IMG/VR virus record: IMGVR_UViG_3300015263_000599
Coordinates: 30,453-94,452 of that record
Origin: a virus
Length of the DNA stretch: 64,000 nucleotides
Strand: one strand, 5' to 3'
In this document: positions 10,581 through 64,000 of the stretch, in pieces
How positions within the stretch are numbered: the first letter of the stretch is position 1
Layout: each line of letters begins with the position of its first letter
Translations under genes and position numbers: made by a program
The notes under the pieces: model-generated
Databases searched by the model: none
What the model saw: the letters and a program-made list of their open reading frames with translations, nothing else
Told to the model about the DNA's origin: nothing

Positions 10581-11705
10581 ATGAAGCGAATTGCAATTTT
10601 TGGAATGTTGCTCGCTGTGACAACCCTCATCGGTTGCGGCGGCAACGACGGTGGCGATGCTGCCCCCGACAACAGCGGAGAACAGGCCAGCGGCCAAACC
10701 GGACAAACCAGCAACGACAGCTATCCAGCGTTTGTCCACACAGCGTCAGAGTATCCCTCGTGGTCAACCTTCATGGTGGCCGCAAAAGCAGGGCTCATCA
10801 ATCCCGAGCAGGGCGGTCAGCACGGCACTCTGGAAACCAAGTACGGCGTCGATGTCGTGCTTCAGGTGAAGGACTACGATCCGTGCATCACCCTCTATGC
10901 CAACGGCACCTGTGATTCAACGTGTATCACCAACATGGATGCCCTGAATCCCGCCATGGGACGCAAGACAACGATCATCATGCCGACCAGCACCTCAGCC
11001 GGTGCCGACAAGGTGATTGCTGTGGGCGCAACATCCATTGACGATCTGAAGGGATTGACCACCTACGGTCTGGCGAAGAGTGTCAGCCAATACTGCTTTG
11101 TGCGAGGTTTGCAGACGCAAGGTCTCAATCCGGCTGATTTCCAGTTCAAGAATCTCGATCCTGCCCCGGCTGCTACTGCTTTGCAGACTGGCAGCGGCGA
11201 CGTGAAGGCGATCTCTGTCTGGAATCCGTTTGCCCTTCAGACTCTCCGCACCAACAAGGACGCCAAGGAAATCTTCTCGTCCACGACGATCCCAGAAGAG
11301 ATCATCGACTGCGTGGTGATCGGCAATGATTCGTTGGAGAAGCCCAAGGGCAAGGAGTATGCTGCCTGCCTTTGCGAAATCTTCTATGAAGTCAACAAGC
11401 GTCTGAACTCTTCGGACAGCAGTGTCTCTGACGCCACACTGACGGCGTTGGGCGAAGACTTCTCGAAGCTACCTCTCGAAGACATGCGAATCGTCGTGCA
11501 GGAAACTCGATTCTACGGAACGCCTGCTGCCGGTATCGCTCTGTTCGAGAATCAGAAGTTCCAGACGCAGACCATGCCCACTGTGATCACGACATGCCAG
11601 CAGATCGGCGTGCTCGAAGAAGGACAGCAGCCTACTGTCGGCTTCAATGACGACAGCAAGCAACTCAACTTCACGACGGAGTTCATGCGTCAGGCATCTC
11701 AGTAA
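10581..11705 (+). CDS. NitT/TauT-type ABC substrate-binding lipoprotein
   Basis: Lipobox LIGC; STSAGAD, SIDDLKG, VWNPF, IPEEIIDCVV. Confidence 0.88.
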   Translation: MKRIAIFGMLLAVTTLIGCGGNDGGDAAPDNSGEQASGQTGQTSNDSYPAFVHTASEYPSWSTFMVAAKAGLINPEQGGQHGTLETKYGVDVVLQVKDYDPCITLYANGTCDSTCITNMDALNPAMGRKTTIIMPTSTSAGADKVIAVGATSIDDLKGLTTYGLAKSVSQYCFVRGLQTQGLNPADFQFKNLDPAPAATALQTGSGDVKAISVWNPFALQTLRTNKDAKEIFSSTTIPEEIIDCVVIGNDSLEKPKGKEYAACLCEIFYEVNKRLNSSDSSVSDATLTALGEDFSKLPLEDMRIVVQETRFYGTPAAGIALFENQKFQTQTMPTVITTCQQIGVLEEGQQPTVGFNDDSKQLNFTTEFMRQASQ

Positions 11706-11887
11706 GGGCCAATAGCTCAGCGGTAGAGCACTCGTTGATTTCGTGGAGTATGCGTGACCGAGCTTGGTAAGGTGCGTGATTCTTCACGGTACGGACTTAA
11801 AAAGCCGTGGGAAGTTCGAATCTTCTCGCCAATGCTGTGCGAAATCGATGAGAAGGGGGTGGGTTCGAGCCTCACCTTGGTCCACCA
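11706..11887 (+). ncRNA. Nested double tRNA-like RNA (outer tRNA shell with G3:U70 and CCA; anticodon arm replaced by a long helix carrying a second tRNA-like domain)
   Basis: Acceptor GGGCCAA/TTGGTCC-A-CCA; D arm GCTC-AGCGGTA-GAGC; T arm GTGGG-TTCGAGC-CTCAC; 14-bp helix 11731-11744/11839-11852; inner D-like arm and T arm GGAAG-TTCGAAT-CTTCT. Confidence 0.8.
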
Positions 11888-11893
11888 AACACC

Positions 11894-11929
11894 AAGCCCG
11901 TCCGTCCCAAGCGACGGGCGGGCTTTTTT
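11894..11929 (+). terminator. Rho-independent terminator
   Basis: AAGCCCGTCCGTC/GACGGGCGGGCTT hairpin plus T tract. Confidence 0.85.
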
Positions 11930-11991
11930 GCTAAACCCCTCTCCAAATTATCCTTACAATGCTGATGACCTCATAACGAAGGAAACCGGAT

Positions 11992-12939
11992 ATGTTGGGC
12001 GGCTTACTCGCAGGGATTGTTCTCATCCTTTTGGGATGGCTGCTCGTTGTGTTCAGCGGTTCTGGACGGATCAAGCAACATCTTACGACTCGCAGCAAAA
12101 TCATTTGGGGAGTCGCAGGTGTCTCTGTGCTGGCTGTGACCTATAGCTGGCTCTCTTTTCGCCAACACGAACGCAACCCCGACGACACCACGATTCCGAC
12201 ATTCAGTCAGTTGGCACATGGGTTCATGCGAACCGTCACGCCATCTTCCGACGACAAAGAGAACGCTTTACGAGTGGCCTTCGGCCAACCCACGCAAGAG
12301 AAAACTTTCTGGCAGAAAGTTCAATCGACTTGGCTCTATCAAGACTCTGTGGCGACTTATGGTCGTCTCATCAAAGGTCTAGTGTGGGGCTGCATGTTGT
12401 CCATTGTTCTCGGCACACTCATGGGATGCTACGAGTGGCTAGGGAGTTTCCTGTTGCCTCCGCTTGCTCTGCTTGCCAAGACGCCGGGGACAGCCATGCT
12501 GGCCGTCTTCTTTGTGATCGTCGGCACTGGCGAGCCAATGTTCATTACGATGATTGGCTTCGGGGTTCTCCCGACGCTGACACAAACGATCTACTTGGCG
12601 GCGAAGGACGATCTTCATAGAGAGCAGATCGATAAGGCATATACGCTCGGTGCGGACAACACTGAACTTGTATGCAATGTCGTGTTTCCTCAGATACTTC
12701 CGAAGGTGATCGACAGCGTGCGATTGCAAATCGGGCCAGCTATGGTATTCTTGATTGCCGCCGAAATGTTGGTCGGCGATGTCGGCATGGGATACCAAAT
12801 CCGAATGCAGCAAAGGCTGCAACAGATGAACATCGTTTACAACTACTTGTTCTTGCTAGGGATCACCGGTCTGCTTATGGATCAAGCCATGATTCGTCTG
12901 CGGCAATGGTTGTGCCCGTGGTTCGACATCAAAAGGTAG
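11992..12939 (+). CDS. ABC transporter permease (SsuC/TauC-like)
   Basis: Multiple TMs; EAA-like loop IDKAYTLGA, VVFPQILP, LIAAEML...GMGY. Confidence 0.92.
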   Translation: MLGGLLAGIVLILLGWLLVVFSGSGRIKQHLTTRSKIIWGVAGVSVLAVTYSWLSFRQHERNPDDTTIPTFSQLAHGFMRTVTPSSDDKENALRVAFGQPTQEKTFWQKVQSTWLYQDSVATYGRLIKGLVWGCMLSIVLGTLMGCYEWLGSFLLPPLALLAKTPGTAMLAVFFVIVGTGEPMFITMIGFGVLPTLTQTIYLAAKDDLHREQIDKAYTLGADNTELVCNVVFPQILPKVIDSVRLQIGPAMVFLIAAEMLVGDVGMGYQIRMQQRLQQMNIVYNYLFLLGITGLLMDQAMIRLRQWLCPWFDIKR

Positions 12940-12942
12940 GTC

Positions 12943-13905
12943 ATGTCGGTGAACAACATAGCGTTAAACATCAAAGGTGTCAGTCAGTGGTTCGGCGATA
13001 ACCGTGTGCTGTACGACATCAATCTGAAAATCGTGCAAGGTCAGTTCGTCGCACTCGTAGGAGAAAGCGGATGCGGAAAGAGCACTTTGCTTCGTGCCAT
13101 TCTCGGGACTCTCCCGCCCAAGGAAGGCACCATCGAAACTGACGGAATTCCCGTCACTGGCCCCAACCACAACGTCGGCGTCGTCTACCAGCATTACGAC
13201 TTGTATGATTGGATGACAGCCGAGAAGAACGTCGCCTTCGGCCCCATGCTGCATCAGACCAGCATTTGGAATCGCACGTTCGGGTTCTTGAAATGGATGA
13301 AGTTGCGAAAGCAACACTTGGCGCAAGCGAGGGACATGCTGACTCGCTTCCGACTTGGCAACGCATATGATCGCTATCCTGCCGAGCTTTCGGGCGGGAT
13401 GCAACAGCGGGTGGCGATTGCCCAAGCCCTCATCATGAAGCCGAAGATTTTGCTTCTTGACGAGCCCTTTGGGGCTTTGGATGAGGCGACCAGAGAGGAA
13501 CTGCAAGGGGTTCTTCTCATGCTCTATGCCGAAAACATGGAAGCTCGCAAGCGTGGTGAGATGCCGCCGTGGACGGTGATGATCATCACACATGAGCTTG
13601 ATGAAGCCTTCTATGTGTCTGATCGAGTGATAGGACTCTCTCGACAGTGGTATGAAGACACCGACACGGGCCGCAAGGAAGGCAAGGCGTGCGGTGCAAC
13701 TAAAGTCTGGGACAAATCCGCTCCCGTTTATCACCCTGACGATGAGCGTGACTTCAGCAGGTTCCACGATGCCAAGCTGGAGTTGCGAAGCAAGGTGATC
13801 AAAGCGGAGGCTCCCATGGAACGATCCGAACATGTCTCATTTTGGTCCGACCTAGAAAACGGAGTCGGATCAGGAGTCGCATTCACAAGGAGTCCTCATG
13901 TCTGA
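12943..13905 (+). CDS. ABC transporter ATP-binding protein (SsuB/TauB-like)
   Basis: Walker A GESGCGKST, LSGGMQQR, LLLDEPFGALD, ITHELDEA. Confidence 0.95.
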   Translation: MSVNNIALNIKGVSQWFGDNRVLYDINLKIVQGQFVALVGESGCGKSTLLRAILGTLPPKEGTIETDGIPVTGPNHNVGVVYQHYDLYDWMTAEKNVAFGPMLHQTSIWNRTFGFLKWMKLRKQHLAQARDMLTRFRLGNAYDRYPAELSGGMQQRVAIAQALIMKPKILLLDEPFGALDEATREELQGVLLMLYAENMEARKRGEMPPWTVMIITHELDEAFYVSDRVIGLSRQWYEDTDTGRKEGKACGATKVWDKSAPVYHPDDERDFSRFHDAKLELRSKVIKAEAPMERSEHVSFWSDLENGVGSGVAFTRSPHV

Positions 13906-14846: not shown

Positions 14847-15162
14847 GCAACGCAAACCCTTCACGCCCAAGCAGGCGGAAGACAAGAAGATCGAGGTCAT
14901 TCCCCCTCAAGTCATCGAGGCTTTCGAGGAACTGATCGTCGAGAATCTCAGAGGCGGCACCGCCACCATCAAACAAGATGATGTGGTCAATCGGATTCAC
15001 GAGAAGATGACAGGCGTGAAGACCCAAGAGATGTTCGACAAAGGATGGCTGGATGTCGAAGATCTCTTTCGCAAGGCTGGGTGGGAGGTCGAGTATGACA
15101 AACCCGGTTTCAATGAATCGTACCCGGCCACCTTCACCTTCTCGAAAAAGAGGAAACGATGA
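14839..15162 (+). CDS. Hypothetical phage protein
   Basis: Translationally coupled ORF; WLDVEDLFRKAGWEVEYDKPG. Confidence 0.75.
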   Translation: MTEQRKPFTPKQAEDKKIEVIPPQVIEAFEELIVENLRGGTATIKQDDVVNRIHEKMTGVKTQEMFDKGWLDVEDLFRKAGWEVEYDKPGFNESYPATFTFSKKRKR

Positions 15163-16130
15163 GTAAGGAAATCGCAATCGTCATCGGCTACAATGCTGCC
15201 GGGAAAAGTACACTCGTGCGAGAGTTCGAGCAGGACGGATATCATCGAATCAATCGTGACCTAACGGGCGGGACCATCGAGGCGCAGGTCGAGCTTGCTC
15301 GCAAAGCGTTAACGACCCATGACAGGGTTGTATTGGACAACACCTACCCCACGATTGAGAGTCGTGAGTCAATCGTGGCCCTCGGCCAACAAATGGGAAT
15401 TCCCGTTCGCTGCGTTTGGCTCACGACATCTTTTGAAGACGCCCAACTCAATGCTTGTCTTCGCATGATGGAGCAGAGAGATCAGCTTCTCATGCCAGAG
15501 GATTTCAAGAAAGAGAAGAGTCCCAATCTCTTCCCGCCTGTCGCCCTCTTCACCTACAAGAACAAGTTCGAGAACAAGAAGGGCGAGCAGAAGCATCCCG
15601 GCAAGCAAGACCCCAAGAAAGAACACGGGTTCTTTGTGGTCGAAAAACGCCCGTTCGTTCGCCAGTGGCCTGCGGAGTTCTGCAACAAGGCTTTGTTGCT
15701 CGACTACGACGATACGTTAAGGCGAAGCAAGGGCGATAAGAACTGGCCCGAGAAACCAGAAGATGTGGAGATCCTTCCGAACCGCAAAGAGGTTCTGGAC
15801 GAGTATGTGGCTAATGGATGGAGGTTGCTGGGCGTCAGCAATCAGTCGGCCATTGCCAAGGGTCTTAAACGAGAAGACGCCGTTGCGTGCTTCGAGCGGA
15901 CCAACGAACTTCTGGGGCACGACATCGAATACATGTTCTGTCCTCATCAAGTGCCGCCTGTGAATTGCTACTGTCGCAAACCACATCCGGGGATGGGAGC
16001 ACACTTCATCTGGAAGTATAAGTTGCTGCCGAGTGCTTGTATTATGGTCGGCGACCAAACTTCTGACAAAACATTTGCGTCCCGATGCGGATTCGTGTAT
16101 AAAGAAGCCGAAGAGTTCTTCGCTCTTTAA
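15159..16130 (+). CDS. Bifunctional polynucleotide kinase / HAD-IIIA phosphatase (PNKP-like)
   Basis: N-terminal GYNAAGKST, INRD, VLDNT; C-terminal LLDYDDTL, VSNQS, CRKPHPGM, MVGD...D. Confidence 0.88.
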   Translation: MSKEIAIVIGYNAAGKSTLVREFEQDGYHRINRDLTGGTIEAQVELARKALTTHDRVVLDNTYPTIESRESIVALGQQMGIPVRCVWLTTSFEDAQLNACLRMMEQRDQLLMPEDFKKEKSPNLFPPVALFTYKNKFENKKGEQKHPGKQDPKKEHGFFVVEKRPFVRQWPAEFCNKALLLDYDDTLRRSKGDKNWPEKPEDVEILPNRKEVLDEYVANGWRLLGVSNQSAIAKGLKREDAVACFERTNELLGHDIEYMFCPHQVPPVNCYCRKPHPGMGAHFIWKYKLLPSACIMVGDQTSDKTFASRCGFVYKEAEEFFAL

Positions 16131-27462: not shown

Positions 27463-27856
27463 CTTGAAGGTCGCATTTGGGATGGGGATGATGGTAGCCG
27501 TTTTCCTCAAGGCTTTCTTCTCCATCGCCTTCGGGACGGGTTTTGCGCCGATGCTGGTGGCTCTGAATGGAATAGGATTCATCATCGGATTGTTTCTTGC
27601 GGTGTGGGGAACCAGCGGGTCACGCTATCTCGGGCAAGTTGCCGCCGCATCGCTCATGGCCCCGGTGTCCGCACTGTGGGCTCTTTACGTTTTCCAACAT
27701 TACCCTTTGGGTATTCGGGACAAGGTGGACGGCCTGACGTATGCTTGGGTCCATCTGCAAGTTCATCGGGACTTGTACATTTTTCCGATCCTCATGTTCT
27801 CAGGAGCCTTATTGCTCGCTGCTTGGAAGCCAAAGTCAAATGAAACGGTTCAGTGA
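27440..27856 (+). CDS. Multi-pass membrane protein
   Basis: About four hydrophobic helices. Confidence 0.65.
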   Translation: MSQFKTRDLKVAFGMGMMVAVFLKAFFSIAFGTGFAPMLVALNGIGFIIGLFLAVWGTSGSRYLGQVAAASLMAPVSALWALYVFQHYPLGIRDKVDGLTYAWVHLQVHRDLYIFPILMFSGALLLAAWKPKSNETVQ

Positions 27857-28547
27857 TCAAAAACGAGTTCTGCCAGCGTTCCCCCGAACGCCGCATCTTC
27901 CGTGGAGCCAAAACACAGAAGATGACGATCTCATTGCGGAACAAGCTGAACTTCAACCGTTGTTCGATAATCCGGTCAACGTCGAAGAGAAAATCGATGG
28001 TGCCAGCGTTGGTATGACATTCTGGCAAGGCCACCCCCTCATTCGTAACCGTGACCACATACTTCGTAAGGGGTATGTGAAAGACACACCGGCGAAGAAG
28101 CAATTCGCCCCCATCTGGAACTGGTTCTACGATAACCAGAAAAAGTTTGAGTACATTCTGAGCCATGGGCCGCTTAGTGTGTATGGGGAGTGGATGGTCG
28201 CTCGCCACGGCATCTACTATGACCGGCTTCCAGATTTGTTCATCGCCTACGATGTGTACAACTACGAGGCCGACTACTTCCTCTCGCCAACCATCGCTCG
28301 TCCAATGCTCGAAGAGTGCGGCTTCGCCATCCCTCGCCTGTTTCATCAAGGCGACCCCCTTCCCTCGGAACTTCCCGACTGGATCAACTCACAAGGGCAG
28401 TGGTGCGATAGCGTCGTAGAAGGTCTGTACTTCAAGGTTCACAATGGCGAACGAATCACTCACCGATTCAAACAAGTGAGTGATCAGTTTGTGCGTGGGC
28501 AGTTTTGGGACGGAAAGACGTTGCTCAAGAACGGAGTCGCCAAATGA
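27840..28547 (+). CDS. ATP-dependent RNA ligase family protein
   Basis: FPRTPHLPWS, motif I EEKIDG, YGEW, FIAYDV, EGLYFK, RFKQV. Confidence 0.88.
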   Translation: MKRFSDQKRVLPAFPRTPHLPWSQNTEDDDLIAEQAELQPLFDNPVNVEEKIDGASVGMTFWQGHPLIRNRDHILRKGYVKDTPAKKQFAPIWNWFYDNQKKFEYILSHGPLSVYGEWMVARHGIYYDRLPDLFIAYDVYNYEADYFLSPTIARPMLEECGFAIPRLFHQGDPLPSELPDWINSQGQWCDSVVEGLYFKVHNGERITHRFKQVSDQFVRGQFWDGKTLLKNGVAK

Positions 28548-46959: not shown

Positions 46960-46961
46960 AA

Positions 46962-47218
46962 GGACTGGTCCCCTGTAGCCGGGATTCTGTCGAGCGTCGT
47001 CATTTATCTCAGTCTTTCGACTGGCGGTTTCCCGCTGCCACAACCCGGCCTCAAAGCACTGCTCACCTGCTCAGCCTGCTCGTGTTGCATCCTCGGTGGT
47101 GAAAGCGACTCCAGCGAAATTTTACTCCCGCCTTCCCAGTCTCCCACCTTAAGCAGAGATGTCCCGAACTTCCTCAAAGGGCCTGTGACGCCCCCTGCGA
47201 CGACGTAGGGACCAGTCC
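46962..47218 (-). ncRNA. rnpB: Minimal RNase P RNA (catalytic domain intact, specificity domain strongly reduced)
   Basis: P1 GGACTGGTCCC/GGGACCAGTCC; GAGGAAGTTCGGGAC; AGATAAATGACGAC; ACAGAATCCCGGCTAC; P4 pairing with bulged U. Confidence 0.88.
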
Positions 47219-59866: not shown

Positions 59867-59900
59867 GTGTTACAAAATTTGGAAAGCCGGTTAGGGCTGC

Positions 59901-60215
59901 TCAGTTTCCTGCCTGACCCGGTTCCCGGCCCGGAACATCATCGACCTTGCGGCCAGACGACTGTTCCTTGATTCGTTTGAGTCCTCGCTCGATGGACTCT
60001 GAGAAATCGCTCTCTCGAATGACTCGTTTGAGCCTGATCTCGACTTCTACGATACCGCACTCTTTCGTGCAAGGCTTGTTCTTTTCGAGATCTTTGATGG
60101 ACGGGAACACCTTGTTTCCACCCAAAGCGGCCCCAACTTCATAGTCGAAGTCCACTTTGTCCATGTAGACTGTGATCACGCCATCTTCGTCTGAATTGCT
60201 TGTGACATAAGGCAT
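59901..60215 (-). CDS. Hypothetical phage protein
   Basis: YMDKVDFDYEVG...VFPSIKDL...CGIVEV. Confidence 0.7.
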   Translation of the reverse strand: MPYVTSNSDEDGVITVYMDKVDFDYEVGAALGGNKVFPSIKDLEKNKPCTKECGIVEVEIRLKRVIRESDFSESIERGLKRIKEQSSGRKVDDVPGREPGQAGN

Positions 60216-63911: not shown

Positions 63912-63959
63912 GAGAATACCTCCGCACTATAACAGTACGGAGGCGGCGATTTTCTAAGG

Positions 63960-64000
63960 TAGCCTCGGCGGGAGTCGAACCCGCAACGTCACTGAGGACC
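63960..64000 (-). tRNA. 3' half of a tRNA or tRNA-like RNA, truncated at window edge; isotype not determinable
   Basis: Minus strand ...GCGGG-TTCGACT-CCCGC-CGAGGCT-A: canonical T arm and acceptor 3' strand. Confidence 0.65.

Follow-up and report, generated by a model that had tools for sequence, protein, structure and literature searches.

Genomic context of the RNA gene

The DNA analyzed here (hereafter the window) is a stretch of 64,000 nt that corresponds to bases 30453-94452 of a 94.4-kb IMG/VR record. The gene under study encodes a double tRNA-like RNA and is located between the gene for a NitT/TauT-type substrate-binding protein and an intrinsic terminator common to both genes, whereas the permease and ATPase genes of the ABC transporter lie downstream of the RNA and the terminator (Table 1). 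As proposed in the first-pass annotation of this DNA, the RNA starts at the base that follows the upstream stop codon (TAA of the 374-aa binding protein) and is followed by a strong terminator, whose 13-pair stem (11894-11925) is succeeded by a T run. Since no promoter-like site was found between the start of the binding-protein gene and the RNA, the latter is probably co-transcribed with the binding-protein mRNA.

We compared 20 related SBP-permease operons, with protein identities of 47-65%, that were taken from metagenomes and from viral contigs. Only a terminator hairpin was present at the corresponding site in these operons, where it directly followed the stop codon and often had a similar GCCCGTC stem. 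Thus, the RNA gene represents an insertion into an existing intergenic site. The NitT/TauT-type transporter operon itself (10581-13905, related loci L013-L035) appears to be a conserved feature of a megaphage lineage and not a recent pickup from a host. Relatives of the binding protein and of a helicase were found on contigs of matching sizes, up to 693 kb. In addition, related IMG/VR records of 35-114 kb were rated as 7-23% complete, and one 459-kb relative (G005) as 91% complete. On the basis of these sizes and ratings, it is most likely that the record covers just part of the genome of a very large phage and that the CheckV estimate of 67% completeness, which looks too high, does not apply.

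Table 1 Features of the double tRNA-like RNA locus and RNA-related genes in the same record (positions in the window)
Feature	Position	Strand	Remarks
NitT/TauT-type substrate-binding protein gene, 374 aa	10581-11705	+	Stop codon TAA adjoins the RNA start
Double tRNA-like RNA gene, 182 nt	11706-11887	+	Sequence, pair check, MFE, ARAGORN ends
Outer acceptor stem, 5' strand GGGCCAA	11706-11712	+	Pairs with 11877-11883; gives G3:U70
Outer D arm GCTC-AGCGGTA-GAGC	11715-11729	+	A14, G18 and G19 present; U8 just 5' at 11713
Rod, 5' strand	11731-11751	+	15 bp (11731-45), G of G-G mismatch (11746), 5 bp (11747-51)
Inner class-II-like tRNA domain	11752-11831	+	3-bp GCG/CGC stem
Inner D-like arm	11757-11773	+	3-bp D stem, GG-containing D loop
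Inner hairpin CGTGA-TTCT-TCACG	11775-11788	+	Anticodon loop UUCU, 4 nt
Inner hairpin ACGG-ACTTAAAAAG-CCGT	11791-11808	+	Pairs checked by script
Inner T arm GGAAG-TTCGAAT-CTTCT	11810-11826	+	Loop TTCGAAT
Inner CA bulge	11830-11831	+	
Rod, 3' strand	11832-11852	+	5 bp, mismatch G, 15 bp
Outer T arm, 6 bp	11858-11876	+	Loop TTCGAGC; G153:C171 plus GTGGG/CTCAC
Outer acceptor stem, 3' strand TTGGTCC, with discriminator and CCA	11877-11887	+	Discriminator A at 11884, encoded CCA at 11885-87
Intrinsic terminator common to the RNA and the upstream gene	11894-11931	+	13 pairs, 9 G-C, then T run
Polynucleotide kinase + HAD phosphatase (Pnkp-like)	15159-16130	+	
Short divergent ArgRS-like protein, 434 aa	21022-22326	+	TIGR00456, 69 bits vs cut-off of 262
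RNA ligase (PF09414)	27741-28547	+	
Miniature bacterial-type RNase P RNA (RF00010)	46960-47216	-	52 bits, E = 3e-15, gathering score 100

Several other genes related to RNA metabolism were identified in the same record. The RNase P-like RNA covers the full span of the class A model, in which about 110 nt of the specificity domain are replaced by about 30 nt, and no RNase P-like RNA was found in the relatives G005, G003, G013 and G006. Within the tested set, both this RNA and the double tRNA-like RNA are private to the record, and a functional link or a common origin of the two may be suggested. The PF09414 ligase and the Pnkp-like protein form a potential pair for RNA healing and sealing; neither Rnl1 nor RtcB was found in the record. 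The similarity of the 434-aa protein to ArgRS is weak but specific: PDB ArgRS chains match it around the HIGH motif, and the N-terminal tRNA-binding domain appears to be missing. No complete canonical tRNA gene is present in the record. At its very end (63958-64000, - strand), the contig stops within the 3' part of another tRNA-like gene, GCGGG-TTCGACT-CCCGC followed by CGAGGCT-A-CC, which gave a weak Rfam hit to the tmRNA 3' end (13.8 bits). At least one further gene of the tRNA type, truncated by the contig end, therefore belongs to the record. A 46-nt match to SRP RNA (RF00017 positions 175-220, 35 bits, E = 2e-5) was also observed at 59885-59930 (- strand), possibly a hairpin resembling 4.5S/SRP domain IV.

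Structure of the RNA

The RNA folds as a double cloverleaf that has both elbows and no usable anticodon loop, and its gene has been inserted upstream of the ancestral terminator, directly after a stop codon. When the dot-bracket model of this fold was checked by script, all of the 57 modelled pairs were found to be standard (49 Watson-Crick and 8 G-U pairs, no A-C). The minimum free energy (MFE) of the + strand was -72.2 kcal/mol (z = -3.4), and none of 200 shuffled sequences folded as well; the value for the reverse complement was -49.1 kcal/mol. Drift of a DNA palindrome should give G-U and A-C equally, and therefore the bias of 8 to 0 in the helices (binomial P = 0.004) points to structure at the RNA level. 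The gene occurs as a single copy in the 94-kb record. When introns were allowed, ARAGORN also reported exactly one gene in the record, and the ends of this gene were those of the RNA (11706/11887).

All helices that had been claimed for the outer shell, that is, the acceptor stem, the D arm and the T arm, were found, and the T stem is extended to 6 bp by G153:C171 (numbered from the first base of the RNA). The acceptor stem (7 bp) and the T stem thus add up to a 13-bp stack, and the variable loop is 5 nt long. The claim of alanine identity is also supported by the sequence, in which G3:U70, A73 and G2:C71 make up the identity set of the outer shell. It should be noted that charging by AlaRS needs only G3:U70 and A73. 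The elbow bases (U8, A14, G18G19, T54-T55-C56 and A58) are present in both halves, and the description of the RNA as a rod with two tRNA elbows, neither half of which decodes, agrees well with these intact bases and with the lack of a usable anticodon loop. The G15:G48 combination is a non-canonical Levitt pair, which counts against our main reading of the RNA (see below). The only match among GenBank phages in blastn searches was to cyanophage tRNA-Val genes, with 94% identity over bases 1-31.

The anticodon arm of the outer shell is replaced by a rod of about 23-24 bp, in which successive helices of 15, 5 and 3 bp are separated by a G-G mismatch and a CA bulge, respectively, and which contains five G-U pairs and no A-C. 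Two details of the rod differ from the first-pass annotation. The long helix, described there as 14 bp (11731-44/11839-52), is in fact 15 bp (11731-45/11838-52), with G-U as its final two pairs, and the supposed 2x2 loop beyond this helix is a 1x1 G-G mismatch followed by 5 bp. Its first 5 pairs occupy the register that an anticodon stem has in an ordinary tRNA. When 7-nt loops were built on this stem from every combination of 5' and 3' flanks, a loop with U33 and R37 was absent from all eight splice registers, and removal of the inner domain leaves the outer shell with a blunt 20-bp helix that lacks a loop. It is this feature, an outer anticodon loop that cannot be restored, that makes the RNA unusual.

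The Rfam tRNA model can be aligned over the full length of the inner domain, which then corresponds to a class-II tRNA with a long variable arm; the sequences closest to this domain are generic tRNA-Ser/Leu. The previously noted helices of the inner domain (the GCG/CGC stem, the D-like arm, two hairpins and the T arm) are all present, whereas the CCA at the end of this domain is not a free tail: C124 pairs with G47, and CA forms a 2-nt bulge in a continuous helix. The Rfam tRNA model gave 21.9 bits for 11748-11834, which is below the gathering score of 29 because the anticodon loop is only UUCU.

Search for homologs

No homolog was detected by exact-word and gapped pattern scans of IMG/VR or by a pattern scan of 185,579 prokaryote genomes, in which the matches were ordinary tRNAs and unrelated nested tRNAs. 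Analysis of the related operons and of 231 new loci by nhmmer did not reveal a homolog either. We also used a covariance model (R1), with which the window RNA itself scores 230 bits. No homolog was found with R1 in about 330 pattern-selected loci, and nothing was reported in 21 related virus records, a result that excludes close homologs only, as the same search missed ordinary tRNAs in G005. In a full cmsearch with R1 on 780 kb (G005 as a whole, together with G003, G013 and part of G006), the only hit was one ordinary tRNA at 18 bits. The contigs of the closest protein relatives (70-87% identity, including 70% for the binding protein P0002 and 85% for the helicase P0122) were outside the searched set. 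As no homolog, and hence no set of covarying pairs, was found in the searched set, there is no sign of long-term conservation, and judged from these sequence searches the RNA is one gene and not yet a 'family'.

Other unusual tRNA genes were noted in the relatives and in a further viral contig. The 459-kb relative G005 contains a tRNA-Gln(UUG) with a 216-nt anticodon-loop insert resembling a group I intron (C1:333860-334148, L212), as well as three tRNAs that exceed the usual length, one of which, a tRNA-Thr of 88 nt, carries a 16-nt hairpin downstream of its anticodon loop. A tRNA with the anticodon CUA (amber suppressor type) in G006 (C1:30857-30931, L234) hints at stop-codon reassignment somewhere in the lineage. 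In a 175-kb viral contig (L092:10690-10867, + strand), a complete tRNA-Ser(GCU) lies within a larger non-tRNA stem that has an 8-bp closing helix.

Comparison with known RNA classes

In our analysis, no Rfam family reached its threshold for the RNA. No RF00005 match was obtained at the gathering score, and the outer shell was not reported at all; ARAGORN at default settings found no tRNA genes in the 94-kb record. Both halves possess the acceptor, D and T arms and the elbow bases of a tRNA, and in neither of them does a 5-bp anticodon stem close a loop of 7 nt that has U33 and purine 37. The call made by ARAGORN in intron mode, 'tRNA-Glu(ctc) i(33,85)', was rejected, as its intron cuts the inner T loop and 3 nt are placed between the D and anticodon stems.

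Known types of tRNA intron were also considered. Group I introns have a catalytic core (P3-P9) and are usually 200 nt or more; the insert here is 112 nt and gave no Rfam intron match. In archaeal and eukaryal tRNA introns, a bulge-helix-bulge is formed at the splice sites, classically at 37/38, whereas helix 26-40/133-147 of the window RNA is without bulges, and no irregularity is seen apart from a single G-G mismatch and a single CA bulge.

Nested tRNAs are already in print: a preprint describes tRNA-like elements nested in phage tRNA genes, the 'enigmatic introns' of Lak megaphages (Devoto et al., 10.1101/356790). Further independent examples were obtained when we scanned for two T loops 30-55 nt apart. 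In view of that preprint and of our own hits (L005, L003 and L337), the earlier statement that no described family with this architecture was known is too strong. Removal of the inner element of L005/L011, from the first base through G-CCA, gives the canonical loop CUUUGAC. L003/L009 have a CUCAU-type loop beside an inner tRNA-like fold, and L337 (7081-7240, + strand) has a complete tRNA-Lys(CUU) at about 37/38 of a Thr(UGU)-like shell. The latter is located on a contig of a prokaryote genome, and thus nested tRNAs are not confined to phage records. All of these loci are non-homologs of the window RNA (34-47 bits with R1, as compared with 230 bits).

Like the nested phage tRNAs, the window RNA combines two tRNA-like folds, the anticodon arm of one housing the other, and comes from a very large uncultured phage with an RNA ligase gene. 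However, in L005/L011, L003/L009 and L337 either the outer loop can be restored or the inner tRNA is a working one, and neither applies to the window RNA. The insert of L005 ends with a discriminator and CCA; in contrast, the inner element of the window RNA has neither a CCA end nor a usable anticodon loop. Among the features expected of a tRNA-shaped intron, a phage RNA ligase is present, and a restorable loop and a discriminator-CCA end are not. The window RNA is thus a divergent form of the nested-tRNA theme of large phages and not a new class.

Partial similarities to other non-decoding or atypical RNAs could also be observed. Like the window RNA, the species 1 and 2 RNAs of phage T4 (rnaC and rnaD) are phage-encoded and do not decode, and the computed fold of rnaC has a tRNA-type T arm, paired ends and long hairpins that replace the D and anticodon arms. 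However, the T4 RNAs are part of a tRNA cluster, contain one T arm and lack a second cloverleaf as well as G3:U70. Homology with them was rejected on the basis of the absence of sequence or model similarity (6 bits with R1). In tmRNA, an alanine-type domain (G3:U70, A73, CCA and T arm) is carried on a long helix leading to a second domain, and a tRNA-like domain with G3:U70 and CCA is indeed found in the window RNA. The latter differs from tmRNA in having a full outer D arm and a tRNA-like distal domain and in lacking a tag frame and pseudoknots. Identity with tmRNA was rejected, as ARAGORN found no tmRNA genes and no Rfam tmRNA match was detected in 11600-12000 at E values up to 10.

A tRNA-like module with D and T arms and an elbow also terminates the long stem of the non-decoding RNA YrlA, for which published work has suggested tRNA mimicry. 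The ends of YrlA form a Ro-binding stem, whereas those of the window RNA form an acceptor stem with CCA. This difference, together with the lack of an Rfam match and of a TROVE (Rsr) gene in the 94-kb record (itself a fragment), led us to reject a Y RNA. Finally, the 13-bp acceptor/T stack is shared with tRNA-Sec, in which it excludes EF-Tu; the split is 7+6 in the window RNA rather than 8+5 or 9+4, and both the UCA anticodon and a long outer variable arm are absent.

Possible origin and function

The reading that we prefer, with about even confidence, is that the + strand of the locus carries a genuine RNA gene, which arose when the anticodon arm of a tRNA-Ala/Val-type gene came to contain a class-II tRNA-derived element, and that its product is kept as a non-decoding structured RNA. 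Judging from its sequence, the RNA was most likely inserted recently, is matured by tRNA enzymes and may be charged with alanine. Transcription would place it at the 3' end of the binding-protein mRNA, from which it would be released by a cut at G1, made by RNase P (the host's or the miniature one of the phage), and the 3' end would be trimmed to CCA. A stable tRNA-like RNA that could be charged by AlaRS would then accumulate. With its acceptor/T stack of 13 bp and its long rod, this RNA would bind EF-Tu poorly and stay out of the ribosomal A site. With regard to its job, our guess is that the RNA would occupy tRNA-binding proteins, either as a decoy for host tRNA-directed defense nucleases or sensors or as a dedicated substrate of a phage tRNA enzyme. 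A decoy for anticodon nucleases would fit a phage that has a healing-and-sealing enzyme pair. A bolder version, which we consider distinctly unlikely, is a purpose-built, non-decoding and alanine-chargeable mimic with elbows about 90-100 Å apart, the maturation of which would rely on the miniature RNase P RNA that the phage itself encodes, and which would act as a defense decoy or as a private aminoacyl donor or substrate.

The main rival explanation is a decaying relic, that is, a phage tRNA with a former tRNA-shaped intron that has lost both anticodon loops and whose transcription is inconsequential. The gene is a singleton absent from all relatives searched, both of its anticodon loops are destroyed, and the record, which holds no other complete tRNA and only a partial 3' end, gives no sign of a working tRNA set, all of which speaks for decay. 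However, decay should break helices and generate A-C as often as G-U, whereas all 57 pairs hold here and the ratio is 8 to 0; the elbow nucleotides, G3:U70, A73 and CCA are also all intact. Such a relic is thus considered unlikely, although more likely than the other rivals. It would be quite improbable, in our opinion, that the locus is a cis-acting element of the 3' UTR, in which a tRNA-like RNase P site or a bulky 3' structure would determine how stable the binding-protein mRNA is and uncouple this mRNA from the permease and ATPase genes, with the freed RNA as a by-product. The exact position of the RNA between stop codon and terminator, where the related operons have a hairpin, speaks for such an element, but the ancestral terminator hairpin has been retained and serves this purpose by itself, and a cleavage site would need far less than a double cloverleaf of 182 nt that has CCA and alanine identity.

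Two further explanations assume that the RNA is processed into something smaller, and both appear to be poorly compatible with its structure. If trimming enzymes excised the inner element and the phage RNA ligase rejoined the halves, a working tRNA might be produced. Such a class exists according to the above preprint (Devoto et al., 10.1101/356790), L005/L011 give the canonical CUUUGAC once the inner element is removed, an RNA ligase and a Pnkp-like protein are encoded in the record, and ARAGORN in intron mode does call a tRNA-Glu. Nevertheless, none of the eight registers on the true anticodon stem offers U33 with R37, excision of the inner domain leaves the blunt helix without a loop, the inner element is devoid of a discriminator-CCA end, and the ARAGORN solution suffers from the misplaced cut and spacing mentioned above, which make splicing very doubtful. 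We regard as equally far-fetched a precursor from which an active inner domain is freed by RNase III acting in the 23-bp rod or by RNase P acting at the inner acceptor. Although the helix is long enough for RNase III and an acceptor-like stem of 7 bp (with the CA bulge) is stacked on the T arm of the inner domain, this domain has no CCA end or usable anticodon loop, and the internal-loop pattern typical of known RNase III sites is absent from the rod.

Returning to the reading of a retained, non-decoding structured RNA, it may be suggested that the window RNA and the miniature RNase P RNA, which occur together in a record devoid of complete tRNA genes, form an enzyme-substrate pair. Provided that the window RNA is indeed produced and aminoacylated, it would represent a phage tRNA mimic that keeps the features needed for maturation and alanylation and from which the decoding features have been deleted, and it would offer a natural experiment on which tRNA-binding proteins a phage wants occupied. 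In that case, it would also suggest that not every nested tRNA gene of a large phage contains an intron that has yet to be spliced, and that some of these genes may have become stand-alone structured RNAs.
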